From positions 3,811,751-3,875,750 of the forward strand of contig OZ037773.1 in the NCBI GenBank assembly GCA_964035545.1: 64,000 nucleotides of DNA, in the 5' to 3' direction. Shown piece after piece: positions 12,957-40,139 of the stretch. Numbering within the stretch: the first letter of the stretch is position 1; every line of letters starts with the position of its first letter. A program made the translations under genes and the position numbers. The notes below the pieces were generated by a model. That model ran no database searches. It was not told the origin of the DNA and worked only from the letters and a program-made list of their open reading frames with translations. The DNA comes from Bugula neritina. Lineage: Eukaryota; Animalia; Bryozoa.

Positions 12957-15813
<2,857 letters not shown>

Positions 15814-17660: not shown

Positions 17661-19016
17661 TCAAGCAAAAAACACGACGGTGAAAGGTGACCAAAGGTGA
17701 CCATGGTGTTTCTATATTTCCCCGCACCATGTGGAAAAACACGTGGTTAGTGGCATGATTATTCCTGAGCCTCCAATCAGGATGAGGATCTTAATTAGAT
17801 TACGGGGAGGGGGGGGGGGACAGTCTTCTCCAGCGTCAGTTATGACTGGTTAGGCAAACAGTAAACACTTAGTTTTAGTCGTGAAATTGTCTGAATTGAA
17901 TGTAAAGCTTTTATTGTTGTATAAATATAGTATAATTATTGTTCTCGCACAACAAACCTGTGAAGTCGATTACGTAACTACTAAAGCCATGTGCTAATTA
18001 GATTATATACCAATACCCACAACCTACACAAAAAATCTTAACAATTAAGAAAACAGAAAAAATTGTCAATTGTAATAGCCTATGTGCAAATATCAATTCT
18101 CTAGAATTATGACTTTTTTACAAAAAACTTATAATATGAACCTAAATGTGATATGATATGTATATATTGAATATGCATGAAGTCTGATAGATTTTCTGGT
18201 TATGCGTAGTTATGCTCTAGTAACAATTAAATCTAGAGTATTCTATTAGATGGAGCAGACTAAGAAGCAAAATAACTTTGACCAAAGATTAGAAATGCTT
18301 AATCTGGTGTTAAAAGATAATACATGCGTTCGTTGACTAAAGTCTTTTCAATGCTTCTGAGGTAAGAGACAGCATTTGGGAATACTTCATAGAAACTTTT
18401 TCACGTTCGCTTTGTAAAGGAATGGTGCGTGTGCATTAACATGAACCATTTTCGGAATACACCATATATATTTATCACTTGTATGAATATACACATTTCA
18501 CTATGATAATTTAAAATCCATGTTGTTGTAATCCTACCATTTGACTAATGTGCATTTCTGAGTATACCTATTATATAAGGGTCAGTTTACTTATTTTAGT
18601 ACATACTGGAAATCTCCAGTTTTTAGCTATTTTTTACAAATTAGCTGCTAATGGACATGGGCTTTTGCCCAAAACTAGTAAAATTTGAATGGATACACCT
18701 AAATAATCAAGGTTCTTTCTAATTTTGCTTGATTTCCCATGTTTTCTGCTAATTATTCAGCTACTTTTGATTCCTTGATATGTTTTCTCTAATATACTTT
18801 TTTTTTGAAATTCTGTTTATGCTCTTCACAACTTGGTCAAAACATACACCATTTTACAAGTTTCATTGCAATTATCTAGACTCTTCATGTGGTGATTTTG
18901 GCTACACTCCTGTGACTAATTATAACTTTTCTAGTACATTTACATCGGCTATCACAATAACATAATACCCCCTCGTGCATATTGGCAGTCTATTGGCATT
19001 CTTCCAATATAATGTT

Positions 19017-19607
19017 AGTAGTAGAAAGTGGATGGTTCTGGCTCACTTTTTTCCCCGGTCGAGTCTTCGACTCTCCGGTGTCAAAAAGTTATCCAGAACG
19101 CATCCACTTTCTACTACTCTATTAATATTTTATTGAAAATTGAGTTAGAAAGTATATATTCTAGCTCAATATAAAAAGTGAGCTAGAAAGTATATATAAA
19201 AGTGAGCTAGAAAGTATATATTCTGGCTCAATTTGTTTCATTATTTAAAAAAATGAGCTAGAAAGTGTATATTCTGGCTCAATTTATTTTCGTTATTTAA
19301 AAAGTGAGCTAGAAAGTATATATAAAAGTGGGCTAGAAAGTATATATTCTGGCTCAATACATAAAAGTGAGCTAGAAATTGTATATTCTGGCTCAATATA
19401 AAAGTGAGCTAAAAATTGTATATTCTAGCTCAACTTTCTTTGTTATTTAAAAAGTGAGTTAGAAATTGTATATTCTGGCTCAATATAAAAGTGAGCTAGA
19501 AAGTATATATTCTGGCTCAACGTTATTTAAAAAAGCGAGCTAGAAATTGTATATTTTGGCTCAATATTAGAAATAAATTATTATACGCTAAGAATATAAT
19601 AATTTAT
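19017..19607 (+). repeat. Left terminal inverted repeat (terminal hairpin plus internal palindromic repeat array)
   Basis: Reverse complement of 33927-34398, with extra TGAGCTAGAA..TTCTGGCTCA units. Confidence 0.95.
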
Positions 19608-19619
19608 TACTAATAGTAT

Positions 19620-20141
19620 TTAATTAGTTATACTATTATAATAAAGTTTTAAATATACGTAATCAAAAGGTAGCGCGTCAGTAGCGTATTCACTCGGTAT
19701 ATTAATAAAAATTATGTTATTGGGTTTATGACTCGGATATTCACTCGAAAGAGCTATTGTAAACGAAAAATTATTATTAGCGTTAACGGTTTTATTAATA
19801 TTTATTTTACTATACGGAACATTATGTTCGGCACCGCTAATATTATAAAATATATTTTCTTTAGACTCATCAAACGGATTTACGCTATCACGAATATGTA
19901 GACCTAATTTTTTATCAGTCCAATATAATTCTTTTATTTTATTATTAGGTGAACTTTCGTTATAAAATTGTATTAACGCGTGCGTTATTTCTATAGAATT
20001 ATTGACTAAATGGTCATTAATTAAATCTACCGTAAAGCTTTTAATATCTTCGTAATAATAAAATTCGCGTTTAGGTATAATGCTCGTAATATACGCTTTA
20101 TTAGTTGTTATATCGACTTTACCAAATTTATAGATATTCAT
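19620..20141 (-). CDS. Maverick uncharacterised protein, YKFG paralog 1
   Basis: Intact 173-aa ORF sharing 'IYKFGK', 'ELYWTDK' and 'ALPFDYVYLKLYYN' with 20138-20665 and 32773-33261. Confidence 0.75.
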   Translation of the reverse strand: MNIYKFGKVDITTNKAYITSIIPKREFYYYEDIKSFTVDLINDHLVNNSIEITHALIQFYNESSPNNKIKELYWTDKKLGLHIRDSVNPFDESKENIFYNISGAEHNVPYSKININKTVNANNNFSFTIALSSEYPSHKPNNIIFINIPSEYATDALPFDYVYLKLYYNSITN

Positions 20142-20665
20142 TTATAATTATAATAAAGTTTTACTAATACGTAATGAAAAGGTAACGCCGCGGCGGTTAT
20201 TTCGCTAGCGGGAGTATCGGTTAAAATTACGTCACTGGGTTTATAACTAGGATAAGTTTTTGATAATGCTAATGATATTGAAAAGTTTTTATTAGCTTCA
20301 ATAATTTTATTAGCGTTTATTTCGCTAAACGGAAGATTGTGTTCGCTACCGCTTATATCATAAAAAGTATTTTCATCGGATACTCCATATATTTCAGCGC
20401 TATTTCGAACTTGTAAGCCTATTCTTTTATCAGTCCAATAAAGTTCTTTAGTACTGTGTGCTTGTTCACCGTAAAATTGTATTAATATATTCGTTATTTC
20501 AATCGGTTCGTCAACTAAAAAATCTTTAATTAACGTACCACTGAATCCGTTAGAATTACCGTCATAATATATAAATTCTGATGGAATAACGATATCCGTA
20601 ATATAAGGTTTTTTATTTATTATATTGGCTTTATCCAAATTTCCAAAAATATAAAGCGAATCCAT
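20138..20665 (-). CDS. Maverick uncharacterised protein, YKFG paralog 2
   Basis: Intact 175-aa ORF with 'LYIFGN', 'ELYWTDK' and 'ALPFHYVLVKLYYNYK'. Confidence 0.75.
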   Translation of the reverse strand: MDSLYIFGNLDKANIINKKPYITDIVIPSEFIYYDGNSNGFSGTLIKDFLVDEPIEITNILIQFYGEQAHSTKELYWTDKRIGLQVRNSAEIYGVSDENTFYDISGSEHNLPFSEINANKIIEANKNFSISLALSKTYPSYKPSDVILTDTPASEITAAALPFHYVLVKLYYNYK

Positions 20666-21049
20666 TTATAATAGTAATTTATTTATGATTAATTGAGGCG
20701 TTTCGTGTTTAGACATTTCTTTAAGCCAATATAAACACAAGTGTCCGCATATAACCGTACCAAATTCTTGCACTCGTTCCGTATTATAAAATACTGGTCC
20801 TTTTAAATATTTCATTATTTCTAGAGGAGGATGTAATCCAAAACTATCAAAATAATATTTTTTATTTTTATTTTTATACCAAGCTACCCAATGAGTGCCA
20901 TTACCCATTAAATCGTCTAAATTTAATATACCGCATTCTTTTTGTCGTGGTGTATTAGGCAAGTCGTCTCTCGAGAATACTCCTCTAAATTTAAGAATTT
21001 TTAATTCTTTAATCGCTTTATTAATATCAATATTCGATAGAGCTTTCAT
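20666..21049 (-). CDS. Adenain-like virion maturation cysteine protease (PRO)
   Basis: 'GTHWVAW', 'YFDSFG' and 'VQ.....ICGHLC' give the His/Asp/Gln/Cys catalytic set. Confidence 0.92.
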   Translation of the reverse strand: MKALSNIDINKAIKELKILKFRGVFSRDDLPNTPRQKECGILNLDDLMGNGTHWVAWYKNKNKKYYFDSFGLHPPLEIMKYLKGPVFYNTERVQEFGTVICGHLCLYWLKEMSKHETPQLIINKLLL

Positions 21050-24000
21050 TTATATATCCGTAAGGAACTGTCGTTATACCGTCTTCAAGTATAATTCTCT
21101 TATCGTCTTCAGCCGACAAAGCTACTTTGTTTATCGTTTCGGCGTACATTATATGCTTATGACTTTTTAGCACATTCATCGTTCTATGCTGATCTCGCCG
21201 CGTCAATAAACACTCTTTATAATCGTTAAACGTTATACGATTATCGCGAGTAGTTTTATTAATGCCTTTACATTTTTTTTCTTCTACGCCATCTATCTTA
21301 TAAGAGTATAATTTAGCTCTTAAACCGACAAACTCAGTAATTTGTTTTCCACCGGCTTCGTCTTTAAACTTTCCTATTACTTTTTTATTCACGCCAGTTG
21401 GTAACGAGTGATTTTTAGGATAATTACTCGTGTCAAGCGTGCTAGCAACGTCTGGAGCAATATCCTTATAAAAGTCTTCAGTTTGTACGTGATACATTAA
21501 ACTGTCCGTATCCGTAAACAATAACTGAGCTTTATTACCATACTTATGCTTAATATACTCGTAATGAAAGTCATACATTAGAGTTTTACTAATGTCTAAA
21601 ATTGCTGCGCCTAAATATATAGGCTTGTCAAATTTTAGTTTAGTTACGTTCATATGAACGGCTACTAAATTTTCAGAAAATATCGTATAACTTTTAAAGT
21701 TAGATTGATTCGTTAATTTCTTAGCTTCGCTTTCGCTAGTAACTAATTTAACGTTAACTCTATTACGAATATTTTCCATCGTCTTACCGAACACGAAATT
21801 ATTCATTAGCTTAAAGAAATCTTTTTCAAAATTGCTCTTAGCTAAAGTTCTTAGTTTAGTATTTAAATTTATATATTCTTTAAGTTTATTGGATTTGTTA
21901 AAGGTTATACCTCTGTGAATCTTCGTTAACTTTAACCCGTATATAAGGCATTGTTCTAGCGCTTTATAGTGTATAACGTAATTCCTTTTATTATTTAAAT
22001 TTGGAATTAGTTTTTCCACTTTATTAACCGTTAATCTCTCGGAGCAGAATGGATAATCTTTATGAGAGTCGTGTAACTCTCTAGGATATTCTAAATCTAC
22101 TTCCAAGAAACTAGGTGGAAATGTTTTTGCTTTTTCTAGACTACTACACTGTTTTTCGCTTATCCACTTAAAATTGCCTACGGGTAAATTTTTAGACATG
22201 GCCCATCCGTATAGATTGTTAGCGTCCAAATACGTAATATAACTACTAGGCTCATTAGCGTTATAATTTTTCATATACTTATTATTAGCTTTAGCGTATC
22301 TATGACTAATCATGCTTACACCGCCTCTAATTCCTCTTTCGAAGAAGAGTAATTGCTCGACGTTGGTAATAGGATCTAGCTTTAATTCCGTAGTTTTTAG
22401 CATAGCGTCCCACGACAGGCCGGGAGCCGTATAATACCAAGCGGGATCTAACTTGTAGTGCTCAAGACATACGCTTCTAAAGTTTTCAAAAACGTCAGCC
22501 AACTGTAATACATCGACTTTCATATACAAGTCGTGATAGTCTTTAAACGTTTTTATATTAAACTCTCGCCAAACTTTTTGAGCGTGAGTGTAATTTTCAT
22601 CGCTTATATTACTTTCAGTTAAACTCGAGTAAAACTTTTCTTTAGACGGTAGAGAAGTTTCATCTAATACGCTTATGTTGTTAAAATAATCGTAAGGAAA
22701 TACGCCTTTTCTTAATAATAAGCTTAATTCATTTTCATTAAAATGTTTTTGCAAATGTTTAAAGTTGTCGCGATTTAAATTTGTAACTAAACTCGCTAAA
22801 CTAGAACTCATAAATTTAAACGTGTCTAAAAACCTAAGTTCACGCGTAACTTTAATCTTTTTTCCTTCTTTATTAGTAAATTTGTCTACCAATAATTTCT
22901 TACTAAAAGATATATATTTCTCTTCGGTATTGGGTATACACGAAGGTTCACCACCTAAGTTTTTAATAAACAAGTGAGCGTCGTAACCCGACAAGTTATG
23001 AATAAATATCGGATAAAATTTTGGAATTTTGTAATTTAAATTACAATTACTATGAGCCGCTCCTCTATAGTCTCCGGTTAAGTGACAATGATCTCTCACT
23101 TTATCGTCGCTTAATTCTTTTTCACATATATGACAAACTTTAGCCAACTCGAAAGACTCTTGTTCATTAACCGTAATTGTCATTCGTTTAGCAAACTTGT
23201 GTTTTTTATACAAGTTTTTAATGTCGAATTCTAGTAATCTTGTAAACTGTTCACCAATATCTTTGTCTTCGTATTCTTTAGTATAACTTCTATATTTACA
23301 CTCACCGGTAACGCTTACGATATAATATCCGAAACCCGACGGTTCGTGCTGTTGATATTGGTTGGTGTAACTTTCTTGAGAATTAGGCTGACAACCTTGT
23401 ATCGGCTTAGTAAAGCATTCAAAGTCCGCGTATACCGCAAATGGTACTCTCATACTACGACAATGATGGCTAGGTTGAAATTTTATTTTATTTTCGAGTT
23501 TTTGGAAAGACCATAGCTACGCTATCGTTCGATAAACACCAATCTTGATGCTTTTTTAAAGATTCGTTAGATCTACACGAACTCATACAATTTACGCAAA
23601 TATGTTTAGCGCTAACGCGTTTATTTATTTGCGAACCTAATAATCGATTTAAATTTTTAATATAAGCGTAATGGCCTTTTTCACCATCAGTTATATAAAG
23701 TAAATTTATTCCCCGATTGTTAGATTTTCTCCACAAATTTATCGTTTCGCCATCCCACGTAAATACATTAATTCCTATATTGGAATTAGCGTTTTCGAAA
23801 GCGTCAATAGATGTTTTAGTAGCTGGAAATTGAACGCCTTCCCACGATAATTTTTTAACGTGTTCTTTATAATTACTAATTCTTTCGGCATTTTTATTAA
23901 CCGGATAAACTCCCATTAAAACGGCCCACATAAAGCATTTATCGTCTTTATTTTTAGGATTTATTACGGCTTTCTTTTTTTTAATTTTATCCGGAAGATC

Positions 24001-24633
24001 AATCCAAGATGACCCATTAAAAGGTTGATATTTATTAACTTTAATAATCATCTTTTTAACGGATTTAAATATCCAGTTACTTCCTTTCGCGTTTAACGAA
24101 GCAAAATTTTCTTTTATACGTTCAATCATTTCATCGTATAATTCATCAACATTCGTAGACTCTAATATAGTTTCAACGTTTGATGTAAATGGCATAGTTT
24201 CTACGATAGTTTCTCCAGTACTTACATTAATTTTTTTCATTTCGCAATATATAAATATTTTAGTTTTTATAGTAGGTTTTAATAATTCTACTACGTTTAA
24301 TTTTACTAGTTTACTAAATGTATCAATATCGCACTTAGGTAAACCTTTAATTTCATAAGTTTGAAACCAACCATTAGCGGCTTCATTTTTTAACACAGGC
24401 TTAATATCATTAGATATTAATAAGTGTATAAGTTCAACTCTTTTTAAGCTAGAGTATCGCTTAAACCCTCTTTCTTTGGCTATAAGTTTCAATTCTTTAA
24501 CAGACTTGAAATTATCTTCAACCATTAAGAGCTGCATAAGTTCAGCTCTTTTTAATCGAGAATATCATTTCAATTCTCTTTCTTTAGCTAGTGCCTTTAA
24601 GGCTTTAACGGTAATTTTTGTATTGAACTCCAT
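21027..24633 (-). pseudogene. Protein-primed family B DNA polymerase (pPolB), ~1200 aa reconstructed; one nonsense codon and one frameshift
   Basis: Exo motifs 'YADFE' and 'HNLSGYD'; pol motifs 'DANNLYG', 'KLMNNFVFGK' and 'FTDTDS'. The true start is 24633 (MEFNTKITVK). In-frame TGA at 24565-24567; one extra A in the run at 23499-23503 joins ORFs 23488-24537 and 21027-23453. Confidence 0.92.
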
Positions 24634-24685
24634 TTATATAAAAATTTTTAAACTATAAAATCAATTTTTAAATAAAAAATTGGTT

Positions 24686-24922
24686 TTATACATCTTCAAG
24701 AATTTTATTTATTTGCGCTTTAAGTTTAGTTACTTTACGTCGTGATGTTAAACTTTTATTAAAATGTTTAAATAATTTATCACGATTTTCATTTGACATT
24801 GAATTAATTTTTAAGGTATAATGATCGGTTAATTGCATAAATTTATGTTCGGGAAGAGGTATATATTTCTTTTGTTTAGCTTGGGCTATTAGTTTATCGA
24901 GTAATTCATTAGTAAACTCCAT
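24686..24922 (-). CDS. Maverick small basic hypothetical protein (78 aa)
   Basis: ATG at 24922 (MEFTNELL) preceded by AAAATTGA; fits the compact gene tiling. Confidence 0.55.
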   Translation of the reverse strand: MEFTNELLDKLIAQAKQKKYIPLPEHKFMQLTDHYTLKINSMSNENRDKLFKHFNKSLTSRRKVTKLKAQINKILEDV

Positions 24923-24965
24923 ATTATAAAATAACGTAATAATAAAAATCAATTTTTTTATATAA

Positions 24966-25445
24966 ATGGACTTTCGACGAGAAAAATTAGAACTCTTAAA
25001 CGATGAAATTATTAAATTAGAAAACGAATACGAACAAAAACTTAATCGTTTTAATTGGTTATCAAAATCGTTAAAAATAATTTCAGGATTATGCGGTACA
25101 ACGAATTTAATATGCGGTGTTATTATTACGGCGTTATTAAACGCTAACGTTACTAAACAAACGTTATTACCATTATCTATAATAGTAAGTATAATAAGTG
25201 CAATTACTACTTCTATTTCTTCTCAAGACGCTAAATTAATTAAATCTACATTAATGTATTTAGATATATATACGTTTATAAAAGATTCTAAATTAGAAAT
25301 TAATTCTATGTTATCAAAATTTTTAAGCGACGCTCATATAGACGAACATGAGTATGACGCTATAACCAAAAAATATAAAAATATTAATAGCGTAATATCG
25401 AATAAAAAAAGCGACATAATAGCCGCTCGTGACAACGTTTGTTAA
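24966..25445 (+). CDS. Maverick predicted two-TM membrane protein
   Basis: 159-aa ORF with an N-terminal coiled coil and two hydrophobic segments. Confidence 0.65.
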   Translation: MDFRREKLELLNDEIIKLENEYEQKLNRFNWLSKSLKIISGLCGTTNLICGVIITALLNANVTKQTLLPLSIIVSIISAITTSISSQDAKLIKSTLMYLDIYTFIKDSKLEINSMLSKFLSDAHIDEHEYDAITKKYKNINSVISNKKSDIIAARDNVC

Positions 25446-25515
25446 TTAATTATATTATAATTAATTAAAAAAGGGAGTTCAATACAAAAATTATTCTTAT
25501 TTATATATTTATCCT

Positions 25516-25911
25516 TTAAATTATAATATTTCGTCTTTTTTCTATTTCGTCTTCAGCGTATTTTAGTTTAGTAAAGAATAATGGTATTCTAGCCGCCGCG
25601 TAATTCATTAAACCTACGTTAAGTTCTTGAATTATTTCTTTATTTTTGTAAATAGTTTTTATTTTTAATTTTCCATCATTTTCTTTATAAATAATTTCTT
25701 TTTAATTATTATAAGTAATTTCTTCAAACATTCCGCGTTCGTTAGACGGATTATTCATTTTGTCTAATATATTAAAGTTTTTATAAATAATTCTTTCTTT
25801 AATATCACCGCCTTCATACACTCGTTTTTTGCAATCATTGTTTTTATAAATTGTTTCGGTAATTGGAGTGCCGTCGAGGCTTTTATAAGTAATTACTGTT
25901 GGGTCGACCAT
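25516..25911 (-). pseudogene. Maverick beta-hairpin-repeat (MORN-variant-like) protein with an internal stop
   Basis: The frame continues past TAA 25702-25704 to 25516; repeated 'E.I.Y.N' units. Confidence 0.5.
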
Positions 25912-25930
25912 TTATATATTTATTCTTAAA

Positions 25931-26500
25931 CTATAACAGCATGCCTAAAAGAGGAATATTTTTAAACGGACTATTCGGACCCAAAATTAAACCTTCGCCT
26001 TTTATATAGCTAGAACCCTGTTTTAAGTATAAACCGTTACCTTTCATTAAATTAGACGGCGCGACTGGTTTTAAAGTAATAAAACCGTTTGAATTAGGTT
26101 CTACGGAACATACGTATCCACCTTTTTTCAAATAAAGACCTTTACCTTTAATAGCTCTTTCGACTCCGGCGCTAGCGGCTCCAGAAAGCACACCCGGTAT
26201 AATAGTTTTTAATAGCGTAGGTAAAAATCTCGTAGCTATACCCAATAGAGGTCCTAAAAATCCTCCACTCATTGACGCGTTAGTTTTTACCAACGACGGA
26301 GACATTTCGAGCGTTATATTTTTTTTATTCGCATTTAACGTTTTTAAAATATTATCATTTTGCGTTTTCGTAACGGCTAGTTTATCGTTTCCGCTTTCGA
26401 GAGGCAATTTAATAGTGCAACCCTTGCCGCTTCTATAAGCGTTCATTATTTTTTGTTTTTGCGCCTGTGGCACATTTCCTGTAATTTCGCAATAACCCAT
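25931..26500 (-). CDS. Putative virion core/membrane-active precursor (adenovirus pX-like amphipathic segment)
   Basis: 'MSGG|FLGPLLGIATRFLP' matches the adenain consensus followed by an amphipathic helix; repeated KGxGL. Confidence 0.65.
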   Translation of the reverse strand: MGYCEITGNVPQAQKQKIMNAYRSGKGCTIKLPLESGNDKLAVTKTQNDNILKTLNANKKNITLEMSPSLVKTNASMSGGFLGPLLGIATRFLPTLLKTIIPGVLSGAASAGVERAIKGKGLYLKKGGYVCSVEPNSNGFITLKPVAPSNLMKGNGLYLKQGSSYIKGEGLILGPNSPFKNIPLLGMLL

Positions 26501-26512
26501 TTATATAATATA

Positions 26513-27271
26513 TTAAACTTCTCTTAAATGAAATCTTATTGAGAGTTGTTCACCGCTAAGATCTAATAAATTACCTTTTTGATCGGTTACCGTAACGGTT
26601 AACGTCTTAATATATTTAACGTGAACGGGTAAGTATATTAAATTATGAGGTTTTTCTATTATTTTATATCCCGGACTAACGCTCGGAAAAAATGAATAAA
26701 TAACGGGTTTATAAGTACCATCGATATAACTTCCGTTAATACAATCGACTTGTACGTGTATAGCGTTTATATTTAAAATATTTACTATGTTCGTAGCTTC
26801 GATATAAGGTTGATTATATATTGTCGCGTCAAAACCTAAAACGTCTCTTATAGAATTTTCAACGTTAAAATCTATTCGATAATTAGGTTTTAATTTAAGT
26901 ATAATTCTAAAAGTTACTTTATTAGCTTGTAAAGTAATGCCGTTTCTATTACCCCCCTCTTTTACTATTTCGTCTTGAATAGCTTGTTCTAATTGATCTA
27001 ATTCATACACTCCAATTGGTAACGAAACTAAATACCACGTATTACCACCGTCTTTAGACCATCTATAGGAATTTCTATCGGCACTAATGTTTGGAAAAGA
27101 ATAAAACGTATCTAAACTAATAAGGCACATTTCGTATTTTTTATTTTTATTTAATTCTATAGGCGGATTAAGTTGAGTAATTATTCTCGTTTTAGTATCG
27201 GTAACTTCTATAGTCATTGTTTGTTTAGAGGCCGTATTATCGGCAATTTCTCTTAAAATTTTATTATCCAT
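26513..27271 (-). CDS. Minor capsid protein (penton)
   Basis: 'LNPPIEL', 'SFPNI', 'IPxGxY-like LPIGVYEL', 'PGYKIIEKP..LIYLPV', 'TDQKGNLLDLSGE...RFHLR'; adjacent to the MCP. Confidence 0.85.
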   Translation of the reverse strand: MDNKILREIADNTASKQTMTIEVTDTKTRIITQLNPPIELNKNKKYEMCLISLDTFYSFPNISADRNSYRWSKDGGNTWYLVSLPIGVYELDQLEQAIQDEIVKEGGNRNGITLQANKVTFRIILKLKPNYRIDFNVENSIRDVLGFDATIYNQPYIEATNIVNILNINAIHVQVDCINGSYIDGTYKPVIYSFFPSVSPGYKIIEKPHNLIYLPVHVKYIKTLTVTVTDQKGNLLDLSGEQLSIRFHLREV

Positions 27272-29303
27272 TTATATAACTTTTAAATTATTTCCATCGG
27301 AAGTGAGAGACATAGTTTTATCGGACAAAATTAGCGCGTAAGCTTGAGTATTAGCCGGCACGTTTTGACTAAATTGAACTCTCAATTGAATATCGGCTAC
27401 GCTATTTTTAAGAGTCTCGCTTTGCTTACTAACGTCTATTACGAACAAAGCGTAAAGATCTTTATATTCCGAAGGTAATACGTTTGAATAAGCGATTAGC
27501 TCGTTTATACCGTAATAATCTCCGCAAAATTTCGAAGCGTCTCCGTACACTCTACTAAACTTCATTTTAGCAAAATCTATATCGTAATCAACCTCGGGAT
27601 ACCGCTCACTATTTAACATCGCGTATACGCTTTTAACGTTAACGTGATCGAATACGGCGGGATTAGTAGTTTGACTTTCAGTCTTATTCGTTTGAAAACC
27701 TACAATAATATATTTAGGTTTTTCCGTATCGCCTCTAGAACCCAAACGCCACGTAAAGTTAGTAGTTTGCGGTACAGAAATACTATCGCACCATCTAGAT
27801 CTATATATCATTGGAAGTTGAGTTTTACTCTCTATAATCTTATAAAGCTTATTTTTCATTTCAAAACTGGGAGTTATATGAGGCATCCACCACGACACTT
27901 TATCCAACGTTATTTTTCCCGCGTCTACGCCATTAGCTCTATAAATGGCGTTATCGTTAGTATCGCGTACTAGCGTTAGTTGATGTTTTATACCATACAA
28001 AACTTTTTCATAATCATCGGCAAAACCAAACAAATGTCTGAGATCCACCTTAATACTAAAAGTTTCTTTAGGGTCGGGCTTTTGTATAATATAAATTTGA
28101 CGGGCGTTAAAACGTAAATTAGCGGCGGCAGCGGCTGCGGTAGTGTCTTTTGACCACAACTGGTTAAGACCTCTCGACTTGCCATAATCATCGGGATAAG
28201 TTAGCAAACCCATCATGGTCGAAGCGGTCCGGGATTATTTATATATTCCAAGTCGTGTCCGTCGAGTTGATATCTAATACTTTTAAACAAATAAGCCATA
28301 CCGTTATTAGTTAACGTTACTAAGTCGGCGTCGGCGTCACAGGATAGTTAAGGGCATCCTCACTAAGAATATCATAAATTTCTCTCAAAATGTAGTTCGG
28401 GTTCTTGAATAATATTGCTCTGCGGGTGGCATGCGTGTTGCCTACTTGTAATTGTTTAGCCTAAGATTAAACTACAACCAATAAGCAGCAACCTTCGTTA
28501 GGGCTGCGTTATCTATCAACATTCCATTATTGGTGCTACATAAACAAAGTACAAAGCAAGCTATTCATTATAGCCTGCCAGCTAGCTAGCCTGTAATTAT
28601 TATGTAGGCGCCAATATCTTCTCATCCCTACGTGCTCAGTGAAGCGTGAAGTGCTGCGCGCTGCTAGTTTCTTATGAGAAAATATGGCATTTTCAGTGTA
28701 TAAATCACCAATTTATGAGCAATCTAGCAGAGTTATTGAAAAAAGAAAAAAACTTACACTGGAGAAATATCTCAGGATTCCAGCAGTGCAATTTTTATTC
28801 AGATATCATGCTTTGTTGCTGAGATATTTTACTGGTACTGAAAAGTCAGCTTTTCAGGCAAAATTGGCCAAAATTCGGCAGTTTTTTGTCTATAACTTCG
28901 CAAAAAAAATGAAAATTGAAATTTCCAAAAAACTTACACTGGAGAAAAAGAAGATCTACAACATAGTTTTTAAATTTTGACTCTAGCTCAATTAGGTGAG
29001 ATTTTATTTTACTGGTACTGAATTCTTATATGATTACAATGCAAACCTCAGCAAGGCAGTTGCAGCTAAAAGGTTGCCCTTAACTATCCTGTGGTAAGCG
29101 GTTCCGTCATTTTTCGTTAAACGACCTTCGATAATCAAATAACTTTTACTCGGCTGAACGTACAAATCTTGTTGATTAATAACTATTCTAATTTCACCGG
29201 GGTTATCTAAATTCGTTCCAGTTACGGGTTCGTATTCGTGTACCTGATCGCGTTCTATACCCGTATCGGTTACAATTTTTTGTGTAATGTTTAAAGAGTC
29301 CAT
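27272..29303 (-). pseudogene. Major capsid protein (double jelly-roll), ~424 aa reconstructed; disrupted by a MITE and a 1-bp deletion
   Basis: 'YEPVTGTNLDNPGEIRIVINQQDLYVQPSKSYL' through 'KPKYIIVGFQT', 'LNSERYP' and 'VIDVSKQSE'. Removing 28338-29095 restores DGTAYADADLVT; frameshift at ~28228. Confidence 0.9.
28338..29093. mobile_element. Non-autonomous CACTA/EnSpm-like TIR element (756 bp) inside the MCP gene
   Basis: 23-bp TIR CACAGGATAGTTAAGGGCA(T/A)CCT, 2-bp TSD GT (28336-37 and 29094-95), internal ~180-bp direct duplication. Confidence 0.85.
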
Positions 29304-29324
29304 TTATTATAGTAAAATAATTTC

Positions 29325-29699
29325 TTAATAAGCTATAGCTTGGCCAGAACCTTCTAAAATATTAGCGATAGGTTGACTAATCGCGTTTAATACTTTTTGT
29401 CTTTGAGTATCATGACTAAGCGTTTTTAATATTTTTTGTCGTTTAGTATCATTAAGAGATTGACTAAGCGTGTTTAATACGACTCGATTTTTATCGTTTA
29501 ATTTTTGTTTTCGTTTATTTTTTACAGTGTTAATAAATTTTTAACCGGCCGCGTTACCGGCTTTAGCTATAGCTTTTTTACCTAATTCTCTTACGCTGGA
29601 ATTACTAGCTATTTTACTTACTACATTCCTAATGGTGTCAAATATTCTACCACCGGCGTAGTGTCTTTGTAATCGTTGTCTTTTATCGTAAACATACAT
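29325..29699 (-). pseudogene. Basic amphipathic virion protein (adenovirus pVI-like), missing from the ORF track because of an internal TAA
   Basis: MYVYDKRQRLQRHYAGG|RIFDTIRNVVSKIAS...; in-frame stop at 29541-29543; the frame continues to ...ILEGSGQAIAY*. Confidence 0.65.
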
Positions 29700-29702
29700 T
29701 TA

Positions 29703-30512
29703 TTATAGGCGTAAAAGAATGTTTTCGTATTGATTATGAGTAATTTCTTTCATTCTAAGTAATTCGTCTAATATAGCTACGATTTCGTTTTGTACTCCCG
29801 TATGTCCGGCTTGAACACTAGAAAGTAAAAGTTGAAGTCGTTCTACTAAAGCGTTAGGGTCTTGAGATAAATAAACTACTCCACCTCCCCTCTTAGATTT
29901 TTTACTATCGGCGAGTTTCGCTCTCTGAGGATATAATTGTTCCCAAATAGGTCTAACAATATTTTTCCATTTCCCACTATTTTTATCCACTGGACCGTGT
30001 TTACTTTGATATATAGCACCGCCGTTATCGAGTATATTAGCGTAATTCGCTAAATCATTATCATCGTATCCTATCGGCGTTTTACGCGTTAAAAGACTTA
30101 AAAGTTCTTTAGTTGCCGGATATTCTTCACCGTCAAAAATTATTTTACCATCGTTAAAGCTTATAGGTTTCGTACCAATAACGTGTTTATTACCGTCCCA
30201 CTTTACATTATAAGCACCGGGTTATAAGCCCGCTAAAGCGTTTTGCGTATATTCATCTAAATTTATAACTCCATCCGTTATAGCCGGTTGATAATTTGGT
30301 AATGTAACCAAATCTCGCAATTGTTTTAACGCTTCAGTCGTTTGAGCTTGAGAAGCGATTACGGGTTCAAAATATTTTTCTTGAGCCATTGCGGCATTTA
30401 ATTCTTGTTCACGTTCTCGTTTAAAATTTTCTTTTATTCTATTCTTTCGAGAAATAAAATCTTGTACAATTTTATCTCTTTTTATAGGATCATTAATCTT
30501 TAAATAACTCAT
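29703..30512 (-). pseudogene. Conserved Polinton/adintovirus coiled-coil core protein with an internal stop
   Basis: ORFs 30222-30512 and 29703-29990 are one frame split by TAA 30222-30224; C-terminal 'DPNALVERLQLLLSSVQAGHTGVQNEIVAILDELL'. Confidence 0.75.
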
Positions 30513-30526
30513 TTATTATATATTAA

Positions 30527-30643
30527 TTTGTGTCTACATTTGTGTCCACTTTTGTGTCTACTTTTATGGACACAAACACATTTGTGTCTACTTTACGTTT
30601 AATTTGTGTCTACTTTTGTGTCTAGTGTCTACATTTGTGTCCA
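30527..30643. repeat. Short TTTGTGTC(T/C)AC repeat cluster in the only sizeable Maverick intergenic gap
   Basis: About 8 direct copies plus one inverted copy (GGACACAAA). Confidence 0.85.
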
Positions 30644-32007
30644 CTATAAACGTTCTGAAACATTTAAATCTACCCACGAGTTTTGCGACTCGGGATAACC
30701 CAACCATTTTACTAAAGCCTTTTTACCTTTCTTTTTAATTACACGCTGTATTCTATAAATTTCTTGATTCGTCTTTTGTAATTCCTGTTCATAAAAAGAT
30801 CTTTGAATTTCTTCTCCTCCCGAATCAGTTAATTTATAAGTCGTTGGATTCGTATATAATATTTTACTTATCGTAAACACTTCCTCCGTCCATCTAACGG
30901 TATAACCTTTTCAAACGTTAGTTTCTTACGAGGTATACGCACTCTATCGCCTACAGCGAATTTAGGTTTAGAAGGCGCTGGTAAATTAGGATATAATTTC
31001 ATGCGTACTTTATTTTCGTTAGAAGGATTACTAGCTTCAATCAGTGTCATTCCGATAGACGAATGTTTAATCTCGTTATACCGTTTTACTAAATCTTTTA
31101 ATATGTCTATATATTTATAAGTATTATTCGCTGAAAAATATTTAAACATTCGCTCTTTCATAGTTCTATTCCACCTTTCTACTACGCTAGACTTTTCTTC
31201 ATTTTCCGTAGAATATAAGTTTATTAAGGACTTTACGTCTTTATTATAAAATTCTTTTCCCTTATCAACCCATAAACGTCGTGGCTTACGAAAAATTGTT
31301 TTTAAAGCTAAAGCAACGGCTTTACCGGTTTTATTTTTTAAAGGTATTATCCAACCGTATTTAGAAAACATGTCTATTATCGTTAATAAATATTTATAAC
31401 CATTATTAAATTTAGCGAATTCGGTCATATCAACCAAGTCAGCCGCCCAAATATCATCAATACCCGATACCCAAACTCGTCTTTTACGAAATTTCTTTTG
31501 TACCGGTTTATGCAATTCTTCGGCTAACTCATTAGTCCATCCCCATCCTAAACGTTTTTTCATTCCTATTATAGCTTTAGCAACGCGACTGTGTCGTTGT
31601 TCGGCTAACGTAGGATTAGGTATAGCGTTTAGTTCGTCTAACATATTTTTATCACATATTTTATTTCTAGTCTCGGTATCTTTATGAATCGCGTAACATA
31701 TATCGTGTCTCATAGCTATAGCGTCGTCTCGATCTACCGGTTTACTCCATTCTTTAGGAGTCATGTCGTCATTAAGACGTTTATTTAGTTTTGTACCTGG
31801 ACCTAAAAAATTGTGACCTGGATAATGCATTTCGACTGGTAAATTATTTATTAAGCTATTCGCTAAACCAGCTCCTCGTTTAATAAACGTAGTCTTTTTA
31901 CATCCACAATTAGAGCAATTACCGTAGCCCATTGGCTTATTATTTTTACTTAATTTCTCAATATAATTGAGAGTTTGAGTATTACGTTTACACTTTAAAC
32001 AATACAT
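30644..32007 (-). pseudogene. Zn-ribbon + parvovirus-type PLA2 + retroviral-like DDE integrase + chromodomain fusion; one frameshift
   Basis: CxxC..CxxC; 'FLGPG' and 'RHDICY'; DDE motifs 'WAADL', 'WVDKGKEF' and 'VVERWNRT'; chromo 'LVKWLGYPESQNSWV'. One A is missing at ~30908-30911 (FEKGYTVRWTEE). Confidence 0.9.
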
Positions 32008-32019
32008 TTATTATAGTAA

Positions 32020-32769
32020 ATGGACAATCAAAATTTATCTTGGAAACGTGAAATTAATCGTAATAATAATCCTTTACTTCCTAAAAGTATAAGAGGCGTT
32101 ATTATTGGTAAATCCGGATGCGGTAAAACTACATTATTATGCAATTTATTATTCCAACCCGAGTGGTTAGATTATAATAGACTTATAGTTTACGGTAAGA
32201 GTCTTTCTCAACCCGAATACGCTAATATGCGTAAAGCTTTCGAAACAGGATTATCTAAACAAGATATATTCGATATGTTTATAAATAGTAATGAAATAAT
32301 AAATGTAGATGACCTCTTAAAAGAATTAGGTAGTAATAACTGTAATATAAACGCAGAGTTTATAGAGTCTAACGAAGACGTATGCGATCCTAGTGAATTA
32401 GATGCTAACGATAAAAATTTAATAATATTTGACGATTTAATGTTGGAAAAACAAAAAACTTGTGAAAGTTATTACGCTAGAGGTCGTCATAATAATGTTG
32501 ATTGCTTTTATTTGCCTCAAAATTATTTTAAATTACCTAGACAAACTATTCGAGAAAACGCTAATTTCTTTTGTTTATTTCCACAAGATATGAAAAATTT
32601 AAATCATATATATCAAGATCATGTAGCGCGTGATATGCCTAAAAATGAATTTAAAAACTTTTGTAATAAAGGATGGCAAAAACCGCACGGCTTTATTACC
32701 TTAGATTTATCTTCCTCAAAAAATAATGGAAGATATAGACACGGATTAGACGAATTTTATATACCGTAA
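32020..32769 (+). CDS. A32/FtsK-HerA-type genome packaging ATPase
   Basis: Walker A GKSGCGKT, Walker B IIFDD, 'RGRH', 'IRENAN'. Confidence 0.93.
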   Translation: MDNQNLSWKREINRNNNPLLPKSIRGVIIGKSGCGKTTLLCNLLFQPEWLDYNRLIVYGKSLSQPEYANMRKAFETGLSKQDIFDMFINSNEIINVDDLLKELGSNNCNINAEFIESNEDVCDPSELDANDKNLIIFDDLMLEKQKTCESYYARGRHNNVDCFYLPQNYFKLPRQTIRENANFFCLFPQDMKNLNHIYQDHVARDMPKNEFKNFCNKGWQKPHGFITLDLSSSKNNGRYRHGLDEFYIP

Positions 32770-32772
32770 TAA

Positions 32773-33261
32773 ATGAGTGTTTATAAGTTTGGTAAATCAT
32801 TAGCAAAAGCTAAAGAAGAAAATTATATCGAAAGAGTCATAACTAAAAATAATGACGTTTTTATACAATCTTTTAGCGCAACGATTAATATAGGAATGTT
32901 ATTAGGATATATAGTGGATAAACCGATAGAACTAAAATACGCTTTATTAGAATTTCAACATCTTCCGGCTAATAATAATAATTCTTTATATTGGAAAGAT
33001 AAAAATTTAACTTTAATTATCGGTGATGTTAATAACCCTCTCAAACACGATACTAAAGAATATATAATTCAAGAAGGCGTTGCACGCGTAAAAATACCTA
33101 TGTTGGAATATATTGAGAGCAATAAAAATATTGGATTAGTATTACACTGCTCGAAAGATTATACTAGTCGTAAACCCGATGACATTATAGTTAATGACAA
33201 CGCGCCTATAGCTTTACCGTTTGAATTAGTGTCATTAAAACTTTACTACAATTATAAATGA
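32773..33261 (+). CDS. Maverick uncharacterised protein, YKFG paralog 3
   Basis: 'MSVYKFGK', 'SLYWKDK', 'ALPFELVSLKLYYNYK'. Confidence 0.75.
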   Translation: MSVYKFGKSLAKAKEENYIERVITKNNDVFIQSFSATINIGMLLGYIVDKPIELKYALLEFQHLPANNNNSLYWKDKNLTLIIGDVNNPLKHDTKEYIIQEGVARVKIPMLEYIESNKNIGLVLHCSKDYTSRKPDDIIVNDNAPIALPFELVSLKLYYNYK

Positions 33262-33915
33262 GTGTTTATAAATTCGGAGGAAGTAAAAAGCCACAAATAG
33301 ATACAAAAAAATTCGTTTTAATAGACGGTAGTAGTACTCTTACGGGTACGCTAGATATGGGGGAAAATAAAATATCTAGAGTCATTAATCCGGCTGACGA
33401 TCAAGACGCGGCTACAAAAAAATACGTTGATGATACGAGTATGCCTAAAATACAAAATCCCATTAATCAATTAACTATATCAACTAATGATGGACACGTT
33501 GTAGATAGCGATTTAAAAGTTAATGACGTCGTTACAAAAACTAATGTATCTAATTACGCCGTACCCCTTATACAAAATCCAACTAAAAAATTAACCGTAT
33601 CAACTACTTCGGGTAGCGTTGAAGATAGTAATTTAAGCGTTAATGACGTTGTTTACAACTAATAATATAAATAATTTCGCTATGAATAAAATACAACCGT
33701 CAATCGGAGGTAAATTATTAATGCTTTCGAGCGATGGTAGTATAGTAGAAACCGGTATAAATATTGTTGATCTTATTACAATACATAATATATACGGTTA
33801 CGCTATTCCTAAATTACAATCAGCGGTTGGTAATAAATTAGTATTATCAACGAGTGATGGTAATATAATAGAATCTACAGAATCTCAACCTACATTTCCA
33901 AGTTATAACGTTTAA
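33258..33915 (+). pseudogene. Fibre/spike-like repeat protein with a +1 frameshift at ~33651
   Basis: 'GTLDMGENKI...DAATKKYVD' trimeric-fibre motif and four ~40-aa repeats spanning ORFs 33258-33662 and 33643-33915. Confidence 0.65.
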
Positions 33916-33926
33916 ACATTATTGTA

Positions 33927-34398
33927 TAATAAATCATTATATTCTTAGCGTATAATAATTTATTTCTAATATTAAAGAAAGTTGAGCTAGAATATACAAT
34001 TTCTAGCTCACTTTTATATTGAGCCAGAATATACAATTTCTAGCTCACTTTTATGTATTGAGCCAGAATATATACTTTCTAGCTCACTTTTATATATACT
34101 TTCTAGCTCACTTTTTAAATAACGAAAATAAATTGAGCCAGAATATACACTTTCTAGCTCATTTTTTTAAATAATGAAACAAATTGAGCCAGAATATTCA
34201 CTTTCTAGCTCACTTTTATATATACTTTCTAGCTCACTTTTTATATTGAGCTAGAATATATACTTTCTAACTCAATTTTCAATAAAATATTAATAGAGTA
34301 GTAGAAAGTGGATGCGTTCTGGATAACTTTTTGACACCGGAGAGTCGAAGACTCGACCGGGGAAAAAAGTGAGCCAGAACCATCCACTTTCTACTACT
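33927..34398 (-). repeat. Right terminal inverted repeat
   Basis: Reverse complement of the left TIR; ~120 bp shorter in the repeat array. Confidence 0.95.
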
Positions 34399-37343
34399 AA
34401 TGTTCCTTATTTTACATTAGCGCTGGCTGGCATCTTCTTGCTATGTTATAATATAGCTGTTGAAAATGCTTCAGCACAACATAATTATTGGTTTGTTTGG
34501 CAAAGTTAATTTCAGCCAAATTTTCCACCCACCTCACTTTACAGTCTTGTCAGTAAGTGTCTGTCTATAGTGCAGCAGGTGTACTTTCAGTTTCTCTAAT
34601 CCACAAATATTCTAAGAACATTATTTTCCATGAAATCAATTTAAGAACTTTATAGAGCAAAAGAAGGTGAAGCATTCCTTAAACATGGCAAAAGCTGTTT
34701 TCTACAAACTTATATAAAGGTAATTTCAACCTAAAAGTGTAATCTGTTTTCCTGAGCATCACCAATATCTGCCTGTAGGCATTTCACTATTATGAGAAGG
34801 AATAGGCTGCTAGCAGCTGCCTATAACAATCTTGACAATTCAGTGCAGTAATTGAAAAGCTTTAATAGCCTAAGCTCTCTCATTTTCCTAATGAATTTTA
34901 GTTTCGGTGCAGGTTAAGAATAGTGCAAGAATGTAGCTCCTTTTGCTCTATATTCTATAAGAACTCGGGCTTTTCTTAATTTCTCTATTACTGCACTTCT
35001 CTCAATATTGACTTATTAGGCCTAAGGTTTAGCCCAGTGTTCGGTATCTAGTTAGTATGCATGTATGTTGTCTAACTGTTGAATTAAAAGTGAAAGAAAT
35101 CCTACAGATATAGCCATATTTACCCAATCACCAAGATTACACATATGAATGTACAGGATTTGCATAAGTTGGTAGGAAAATTTTTGCAGAGACCAGGAGT
35201 TGAATCGTGTCCTACAATGTGCTAGCCGGCGCTCTTATCCTCTGGACCACACAGGCTTTGCCAGTGGCAGAGCACTATATGAGTAATTATCATTATATAA
35301 ATATCTGGAGCCGCAGATGGGTATATAATTGTTAGGCTATATGTTGAAATGCTGATCTTGAATAACTAACCCAAAAATTGAAAAATAAGTAGCCTGCATA
35401 TTACTAGCTAAAAAAATAGGTCTGAAATAAACCAGTATAGCATGTTCTTGTCTATTAGAGTTTGCAGCTGTGCTCCAAAATATAAATTAAACTGTATGCT
35501 ATTTCATAAGCTTATGCATGCAAAAATGTGATGACAATACTGAGTTTGATGAAAACAACATACTTGAAGTAAACTTTGACAATAGTGTGTTATTTTCTTT
35601 ATACAGTAGCACGCGTAGGGCCTACAATCTATAGCATAACTCTCTAATCATATGAATCTTTATGAAGCCCACAGCTCATGTAAGGGTTGCGTCAATGTAA
35701 TTTGAAACTAAAAGTTATGACGCTGCATTGTCTTTAAGGTACATTATGGAGAAAAATTTGGTTTTGGTAGCCTACCCCAACGGCATTCTACAATGCAGCT
35801 CGTATGTTAGCAGTTGTAATAAGTACTTATAATAGCAAGGTTACTACCATGGCTATCTCTGTGCAGTATGTAACCTCTTGAATAATTGCGAAAAGTTTGA
35901 AATATTGGAAGTTTGCCATGTTATCATATCTCAGCCAGCCACCTGAGACAAAGCATCACAGTTATTCATATATTATACTGATACACTAGGTTATATTAGA
36001 TTGGCTCATCTAGTAATCTATTATAGTTCATCACCCTTTACTATGGGAATACAGCCTCTTTTTTTAGGTTTACCTAACAAACCATAGAAATATCTAAACT
36101 AATATTCTAATAATTTAGAGATAAATTTTGAAAACTAGGTTAATTGCACACGTTTGCACAACAACAATAATAGAATATATATTATGCAATATAATAAAAA
36201 ACACATATTATATAATATATTATAATGATAATAATATAATATTGTAGGTACCATTACTGCATTTTATAGCTCTGATGGTTGCCAAAGAAATTTATCACAC
36301 CAATTCTGTAATTACAACAAGGATTATGATAAGAAAATAGAATTAGCTAGGCAGCAGGTTGAAACAGAGTAGATTCCTAAAACATGAAATCATGATTGGA
36401 CAATTGTTTTATTTAGGCTAACCAACCTAGGAATACAAGATTGGGTTTTAACTGACAGGTCATAGCATGTAGCTTTTGAGCCAACAGCACTGGCACTTGT
36501 AAAGTATAAGCAAAGTTAGTGAAGCAAGACTAACCAGCACTCAAATACAGTATATTGAGATACAATACAAGTCAGGAGCATATAAATTAGAAAGAATGTG
36601 GAAGGGGGGACTATGTTTTTAATAAGTTATAACTTAAACATGAATTGGCTTTTGAAAAATTAAAAGAGTATATTGGAGAACATGAGTTTCTTAATTTTTT
36701 CATATTTTTTGTTGCAGTGACATTCAACCTGTTCGAGCTATCAGTGGAACATTGTTCAGCATATAGAAGTAAAGCATCTGGCAAAGAGCCAGAAACAGAA
36801 AAACATGACCTTAAACTAGCTGTGAGCTGAATTATAAAAAATAGCTAAAAACTGGAGATTTCTAGTGTGTATACTAAATTAAATATAATGACCCATATAC
36901 TAGTATACGGTTTATAAGTACCTATATTATAATTACGTAGGTTGTAAAGAGCTTCATGTGCGAGCACTAAGTTATGTTGTCACCTTGTCAAACTGTCATG
37001 TTTGATATGAGTGACATGTGCAGAAAAGTGATACCATGTTATAATGAAACTGCTGGTGTTATTAATCATAGCTAAAGGATGGATTTCCCAAGATGATAAG
37101 AGCATCACAAACCTAGCTGCTAGCTGACCTAGTAGTAGGTTATTAAAAACTGCTGGTGTCATCAGGTGCTTGAATGGAATGTATTTCGCTAAGATAAGAT
37201 CATCACCAACGTATCTACTATCAGGCCTTGTAGAATGATAAAGTATAAAGCTATAAAACCAGTTTCATTCTAGCAGCAGTGAATGGACAGGTGTGATTGA
37301 TCTAGTGGAGCATCTTCAGTTTAACCACTGATTGATTGTTACA

Positions 37344-40139
<2,796 letters not shown>

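Follow-up and report, generated by a model that had tools for sequence, protein, structure and literature searches.

The window, the 64,000-nt stretch of the Bugula neritina genome analysed here, contains at positions 19017-34398 a Maverick with AGTAGT ends and inverted repeats of 438 nt that are 98% complementary, and 15 of the 16 gene starts of this element read TAAATG. The motif is real and highly significant, and it belongs to a broader set of nucleocytovirus-like transcription signals that one Maverick clade carries. Members of this clade may well be transcribed by the RNA polymerase of a co-infecting nucleocytovirus helper and not by host RNA polymerase II (Pol II), a reading to which we assign a probability of about 0.55. 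More specifically, three types of signal stand at the gene classes where they would be expected, and no RNA polymerase-like protein is present among the scanned or annotated open reading frames (ORFs) of the element; from these two observations a helper nucleocytovirus is inferred.

The original prediction for this DNA had placed TAAATG at 15 of 16 starts, and all 15 of the ATGs that it listed carry the motif; the exception, 24922, reads TAATATG. Several of the 16 starts belong to genes that are now interrupted, and the internal ATGs that follow the breaks (23453, 24537, 28216 and 33643) were left out. Because the core of the element is about 70% AT, chance has to be weighed as a source of the motif, and a comparison with AT content and shuffled sequence had been proposed beforehand. 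TAA stands ahead of 10 of the 299 other ATGs in the core (counted without the nested insertion) as opposed to 15 of the 16 gene starts (Fisher p = 3e-18), and it precedes ATG in 4 of 72 cases in the AT-richest, AT-matched background; shuffles of the last 20 nt before each start produced at most 7 of 16 TAAATG in 20,000 tries. TAAATG thus lies far above each of these expectations, and chance from AT richness, at a p of about 1e-18 against internal ATGs, is refuted for the motif itself. Host gene starts in the window had been said to lack this context, and the three readable ones do so (GCA-, ACA- and ACA-ATG), a weak comparison in that all three are putative and paralogous.

TAAATG could instead be a translation signal, serving stop-start re-initiation on a polycistronic mRNA and spread from there to all starts. 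Six of the 15 starts do abut or overlap an upstream stop: the TAA is the stop of the upstream gene at two (20665 and 27271), the second in-frame TAA after the stop at two more (29699 and 32773), and at the last two (20141 and 33258) it falls within the coding sequence of the gene ahead, the two genes overlapping by ATGA. RNA contigs of related copies that cover several genes would also suit re-initiation. No stop abuts the remaining nine starts (21049, 24633, 24966, 25911, 26500, 29303, 30512, 32007 and 32020), as the original prediction had held for at least that number, and three of these are divergent first genes (24966, 32007 and 32020). At 32007 and 32020 the divergent ATGs are separated by 12 nt and each carries its own TAAATG, an arrangement that agrees with initiation at the motif rather than with stop-start coupling. 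In related elements, moreover, TAAA stands up to 9 nt from the ATG and is paired with an upstream A-tract. We therefore regard a purely translational role as very improbable.

The related elements reveal the wider form of the signal. In these elements the first ATG of each non-nested ORF was counted as a start, so that some of the starts will be false. Exact TAAATG is lineage-specific: it is found in 2 of 77 starts of five related elements (L036/L040 0/19, L037 0/17, L038 0/16, L041 1/16 and L004 1/9) and in 16 of 100 ORFs across 35 short ATPase loci. A TAAA within 12 nt of the ATG is present at 40 of 48 structural starts of the five relatives (17.2 expected), and a two-part pattern consisting of an A-tract, 9-17 nt and [TC]AAA is present at 32 of the 48 (5.4 expected). 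TAAA positions at these structural starts peak at -29 to -22 and at -12 to -3. Poxvirus promoters are described in passages of PMC5294985 as having an early consensus AAAANTGAAAA, a bipartite intermediate form with TAAA and a late initiator TAAAT(G/A). The two-part signal of the relatives resembles a poxvirus intermediate promoter, and the window has the late-type feature, a TAAAT(G/A) initiator overlapping the start codon. The distant element L046 (IMGVR_UViG_3300020002_000020), which codes for an integrase and PolB and has 38% GC, carries exact TAAATG at 7 of 7 starts. In a PolB tree of 24 rows, none dropped, which is mostly unresolved and includes a non-homologous L004 row on a very long branch, the window and P0121 stand together (100/100) and L046 falls in a separate starred group; its TAAATG therefore looks to be of independent origin.

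The two further types of signal, an early-type word and hairpins, can be followed on the map of the element. Coordinates are those of the window, and the hairpin z-scores are for segments picked for their hairpins.

19011-19016, unstranded: left target-site duplication AATGTT, second copy at 34399-34404; read from the sequence
19017-19452, plus strand: left terminal inverted repeat, beginning AGTAGT, with internal repeats; 438 nt, 98% complementary to 33963-34400
19565-19615, minus strand: hairpin with a 21-bp stem directly after the last leftward gene; z -4.6
19620-20665, minus strand: two paralogous ORFs (173 and 175 aa) with no assigned function, related to 32773-33261, both with TAAATG starts; no Pfam match
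20666-21049, minus strand: adenain-like maturation protease, its TAAATG within the 3' end of the polymerase gene; Peptidase_C5 E=0.0046, below cut-off
21027-24633, minus strand: protein-primed PolB gene, in three frames in the window copy, TAAATG start at 24633; full-length relatives of about 1,250-1,290 aa are 59-86% identical
24654-24690, minus strand: hairpin with a 16-bp stem after the 78-aa gene, one arm containing AAAATTGA (24668-24661); z -2.6
24686-24922, minus strand: 78-aa ORF, the sole start without TAAATG, AAAATTGA at -34 (24956-24949); sequence
24966-25445, plus strand: 159-aa ORF whose middle is hydrophobic, divergent from 24922, TAAATG start; sequence
25438-25472, unstranded: palindrome with a 17-bp stem between convergent gene ends; z -4.3
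25516-27271, minus strand: interrupted small gene (start 25911), 189-aa ORF (26500) and 252-aa putative minor capsid gene (27271), all with TAAATG; sequence
27272-29303, minus strand: double jelly-roll major capsid gene, TAAATG start at 29303; PF21738 E=8.5e-51
29325-30512, minus strand: two interrupted virion-module genes, TAAATG starts at 29699 and 30512; sequence
30868-32007, minus strand: DUF5679, PLA2-like and rve integrase in a single ORF, TAAATG start; Pfam
32002-32025, unstranded: back-to-back TAAATG at the divergent starts 32007 (PLA2-integrase) and 32020 (ATPase); sequence
32020-32769, plus strand: A32-type packaging ATPase, TAAATG start; Pox_A32 E=7.2e-10
32773-33915, plus strand: 162-aa paralogue and interrupted fibre-like repeat gene, TAAATG starts at 32773 and 33258; the fibre label is inferred from internal repeats
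33928-33964, plus strand: weak hairpin with a 14-bp stem, following the last rightward gene and akin to the left terminal hairpin; z -0.8
33963-34398, minus strand: right terminal inverted repeat, terminating ACTACT; repeat search and sequence

Of the five copies of the word AAAATTGA in the element, two are in the inverted repeats, one is in the nested insertion and two belong to the core. The core copies stand 35 nt ahead of the PolB ATG (24633) and 34 nt ahead of 24922, where the 78-aa gene has the only start that lacks TAAATG. A run of five A/T and then TGA precedes all five PolB starts of the close clade, the window included (1.2 expected, p=0.0005; 4/4 in the relatives alone), and is found at 10 of 20 non-structural starts (3.2 expected) as compared to 5 of 61 structural ones. 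Among the ten more distant long ORF starts tested, L004 included, at most one has the word in range. Among other copies in the host runs a common 1-nt deletion changes the -34 word into AAAAATGA; of the 40 substitutions listed (of 60), none falls in the TAAATG of 24633 or 24966 or in the -35 AAAATTGA. This early-type word resembles iridovirus and mimivirus motifs best: passages of PMC5294985 give AAAATTGA as the mimivirus early word, absent from DNA replication genes, and AAAATTGATT as the beginning of the IIV-6 polymerase promoter, and AAAATTGA is described ahead of the polymerase in part of the account of Gezel-14T (bioRxiv 2022.07.28.501842). A TTAAAGA-type word was also seen ahead of small non-structural genes or the polymerase in L038 (9201 and 10979), L063, L067, L047, L050 and L052.

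The third type of signal consists of hairpins. The four longest in the window (stems of 21, 17, 16 and 14 bp), known as sequence features, are all located at gene 3' ends. A stem of at least 12 bp is present in 5 of the 6 spacers between convergent genes, in 11 of the 66 between tandem genes and in 1 of the 7 between divergent genes, in a count that skipped overlapping gene pairs. The polyadenylation word AATAAA is found at 3 of 16 chosen unit ends, all three in the window, and at 0 of 11 in the relatives.

Host Pol II would offer a more familiar route to expression, using a compact AT-rich promoter at or near TAAA, or unrecognised upstream sites, in an element that would be an autonomous nuclear virus. 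Integration requires the nucleus, and other Mavericks are clearly Pol II units. In six distant Mavericks (L085-L089 and L044) a TATA word followed 21-27 nt on by TCAGT, CATT or CAGT occurs at 19 of 61 starts (1.2 expected), with 0/9 in L086. In a further group, from G001, gaps bounded by GT...AG interrupt PolB at positions common to the four loci that were inspected, and only 0-3 of 12-19 starts have the two-part pattern, which a further twelve distant loci also lack (0-3 starts each). Distant Mavericks with TATA plus initiator or introns therefore show that Pol II-type Mavericks exist and look different. The same module is absent from all 84 starts of the window and four close relatives (0/16 and 0/68; 2.6 expected), and is found at 2 of 8 starts in L004. 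The geometry also speaks against Pol II. A TATA box lies about 30 nt from the Pol II start, and a box at -22 to -29 would place that start at or inside the ATG; the upstream A-tract is too near the ATG for a TATA box, and transcripts that began at TAAA would have a leader of 2 nt in the window. TATA-like words directly ahead of ATGs were likewise rejected as TATA boxes, the start falling within the ORF. Finally, hairpins stand in place of AATAAA at 11 of 11 unit ends in the relatives, and Pol II does not explain why 15 of 16 starts have T at -3. Transcription by Pol II thus appears rather unlikely, although related copies in presumed host RNA runs speak in its favour. Among the distant material, the genome behind L038 (G001), a bin labelled as a bacterium, has 151 PolB matches that come from several Maverick groups, some with spliceosomal introns, and is probably eukaryotic DNA; an ORF in another distant element (L053:6207-7595) has PLA2-like and ADP-ribosyltransferase Pfam matches.

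Under transcription by a helper polymerase, the A-rich-TGA word would switch on the polymerase gene and the small non-structural genes early. Transcription after replication would begin within the AAA of TAAA(TG), where polymerase slippage would add a poly(A) leader, and hairpins would set the 3' ends of transcripts. A start inside AAA with slippage would remove the T at -3 from the mRNA and with it the conflict with the Kozak preference. The relatives would have kept the intermediate-type two-part form, while the window lineage would have fused the initiator to the ATG. The family would for the most part stay silent in the chromosome and form particles only on helper infection, as mavirus does. 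Transcription by a large DNA virus polymerase had been proposed in the original prediction, with poxviruses as the model. The general proposal is strengthened by the two further types of signal, the same grammar in relatives and the lack of TATA plus initiator, and the promoter words appear to match published nucleocytovirus classes. The poxvirus attribution is too specific, since exact TAAATG is all but missing from the closest long relatives, the early word is iridovirus- or mimivirus-like and 3' hairpins are a trait of mimivirus, Sputnik and yeast plasmids. To our knowledge such hairpins are not a poxvirus trait.

Several observations weigh against a helper polymerase. Transcript start, poly(A) leader, timing and helper are all deduced, and every motif is short and AT-rich. 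The near-absence of exact TAAATG from the nearest long relatives counts against this reading, as does the limited fit of the window to the two-part pattern, which just 5 of its 13 structural starts follow; the pattern was composed after inspection of the data, with structural and non-structural labels assigned by eye. One core AAAATTGA doubles as a hairpin arm, and the four hairpins in the core are within the range of shuffles (0-5), so that only their position and length stand out. Counts of AATAAA near all stop codons fail to separate the Maverick groups. TCAGT and CATT are arthropod initiator words and may not be those of the host. Related copies are abundant in four runs containing the element. 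In four runs presumed to be RNA, related-copy contigs extend over 23-26 of 30 bins, and 3.6-3.8-kb contigs spanning two or three starts come from three runs of two studies. The RNA type of the runs is a guess, and assembled contigs cannot show transcripts, starts, strand or leaders; some host-driven transcription of related copies is nevertheless likely. Two RNA contigs end about 50-60 nt upstream of the ATG at 30512, in a tandem repeat, and were not used as evidence for this reason. In passages of a study of Amoebidium, demethylation alone brought 32% of adintovirus genes back into expression, the capsid genes not among them (bioRxiv 2024.01.08.574619), and adintovirus transcripts and particles are reported in part of PMC8502044 from cavefish tissues and baculovirus-infected cells.

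The last of these reports also bears on a different source of the polymerase. The signals could serve the viral-type polymerase of another cytoplasmic element, as pGKL2 provides for pGKL1, or of another large DNA virus, or they could be relics of a virophage-like ancestor. The yeast linear elements share the trio, with ATNTGA as the upstream word, TAAAN as an initiator at which slippage makes poly(A) leaders, and stem-loops at the 3' ends (passages of PMC6211774), adintovirus particles come from insect cells infected with a baculovirus (PMC8502044, in part), and no helper is identified for the window element. On the other hand, the motifs are kept, in lineage-specific forms, across elements that are 51-60% identical in the ATPase, which suggests ongoing selection, and the two TAAATG and the -35 AAAATTGA examined are free of the substitutions listed. 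We consider a source of this kind unlikely.

The gene content is that of a Maverick. The major capsid protein matches PF21738 and only Maverick-type loci; no virophage capsid family matched it in Pfam, no dedicated virophage profile having been run, and a capsid fragment had no sequence match in PDB. The integrase match (PF00665, E=2.4e-7) has 31.4 bits, slightly below the cut-off of 32.6. PolB is homologous to relatives of about 1,270 aa, one of them named from Nematostella, and has no Pfam PolB match; we take its motifs to be those of a polymerase. The 252-aa ORF (27271) stands at the position expected for a single jelly-roll minor capsid gene and has no relevant Pfam match, so that its label reflects position and similarity to genes of the relatives as judged by eye. 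The Rfam search gave no match, Atlas gave only matches below 0.9 for the 162-aa paralogue, and single-protein scans of viral contigs gave no loci. At 20141 and 33258 the last codons of the upstream paralogues (Y-N-Y-K-stop) encode the TAAATG, and the third paralogue, which has no gene downstream, has lost this ending. The PLA2-like and integrase domains are fused in 30868-32007 and apparently in L006 (L006:591). L037, L038 and L041 have them as separate ORFs, and there no clear start signal precedes the integrase; in L037 (8020-8532) an A-run at the junction is a possible frameshift site. The inverted ends (19107-19565 and 33981-34308) hold about nine copies of a partly palindromic 28-nt unit, possible binding sites of a replication origin.

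The window copy is decayed and could not finish a helper-dependent cycle alone. Besides the broken PolB gene, a nested insertion of about 0.76 kb (28330-29093) splits the major capsid gene, and several small genes are interrupted. The suggestion in the original prediction that the element could act as an inducible antiviral hyperparasite is unsupported. The Maverick is inserted into repeated host sequence (18500-19016 and 34399 onward), and one contig joins both flanks without the element. Three paralogous ankyrin-repeat genes surround it (window 12957-14663, 37344-39041 and 42715-44388). Their C-terminal half carries GS...DEFD, presumably a nucleotidyltransferase-like motif, and weakly matches a Mab-21/cGAS-like structure (E=0.43); only three full-length relatives were found, and the cluster is a possible array of cGAS-like receptors.

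Comparison with known systems places the element between several of them. Adintoviruses and animal Mavericks, in the available parts of PMC8502044, share with it inverted ends, a 6-bp duplication, PolB, rve integrase, ATPase, protease, jelly-roll capsid and a PLA2-like gene. Distant Mavericks have TATA plus initiator or introns, whereas the window clade has nucleocytovirus-like signals. Of the poxvirus promoter features given in the passages cited above, the window shares the fusion of initiator and ATG, and the relatives share the core plus TAAA initiator; the window element, known from sequence alone, differs from poxviruses in encoding no RNA polymerase. Mavirus, Sputnik and the Polinton-like virus (PLV) Gezel-14T, in the portions of their descriptions available, are likewise small viruses that integrate or code for PolB, and carry helper-type promoters, putative ones in the case of the window element. 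Sputnik, for which part of PMC6723459 reports late promoters of the helper and hairpin polyadenylation signals, is similar also in its 3' signals, and Gezel-14T in the AAAATTGA before its polymerase. These virophages and Gezel-14T have, in the same portions, protist hosts and known cultured helpers, while the capsid of the window element is of Maverick type, its host probably an animal and its helper putative. The entomopoxvirus-associated PLVs (Barth et al., PMC11296320, in part) are proposed poxvirus hyperparasites of an animal host, and two of them belong, as divergent members, to a Maverick capsid clade; the evidence there is co-occurrence in occlusion bodies, and rve integrase was not detected, unlike in the window element. 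The plasmids pGKL1/2 (PMC6211774, in part) resemble the window clade in an A-rich-TGA word, TAAAN initiator, stem-loop 3' ends and protein-primed polymerase, and differ from the window element in their own RNA polymerase, no capsid and no integration. No report of these motifs in animal Mavericks was found in the literature searched, although subscription papers or supplements could contain one. The words 'promoter', 'motif', 'TAAAT' and 'transcription' are absent from the main text of PMC11296320 and 'promoter' from its supplement; 'promoter' is absent from the main text of the adintovirus paper (PMC8502044) and occurs twice in the vertebrate Maverick paper (PMC8097293), where the accessible passage concerns a host gene.

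Tentatively, and at somewhat less than even odds, a large animal Maverick clade that includes a cnidarian member would consist of integrated virophage-like viruses with an early/post-replicative programme for nucleocytovirus RNA polymerases; the promoter forms would record the helper, and other clades would have switched to Pol II. The signals bear on whether the Mavericks of animals live as autonomous nuclear viruses or as satellites that depend on larger ones, and divide Mavericks, with no more than the DNA in hand, into a Pol II-type and a nucleocytovirus-type class. They lead to exact predictions: a start inside TAAA, a poly(A) leader, an end at hairpins and induction on infection. If true, a virophage-like Maverick clade would explain why Maverick particles, stated as unobserved in a passage of PMC8097293, are almost never seen, and would extend to animals a virophage biology whose helper-activated lifestyle has so far been shown mainly in single-celled hosts.

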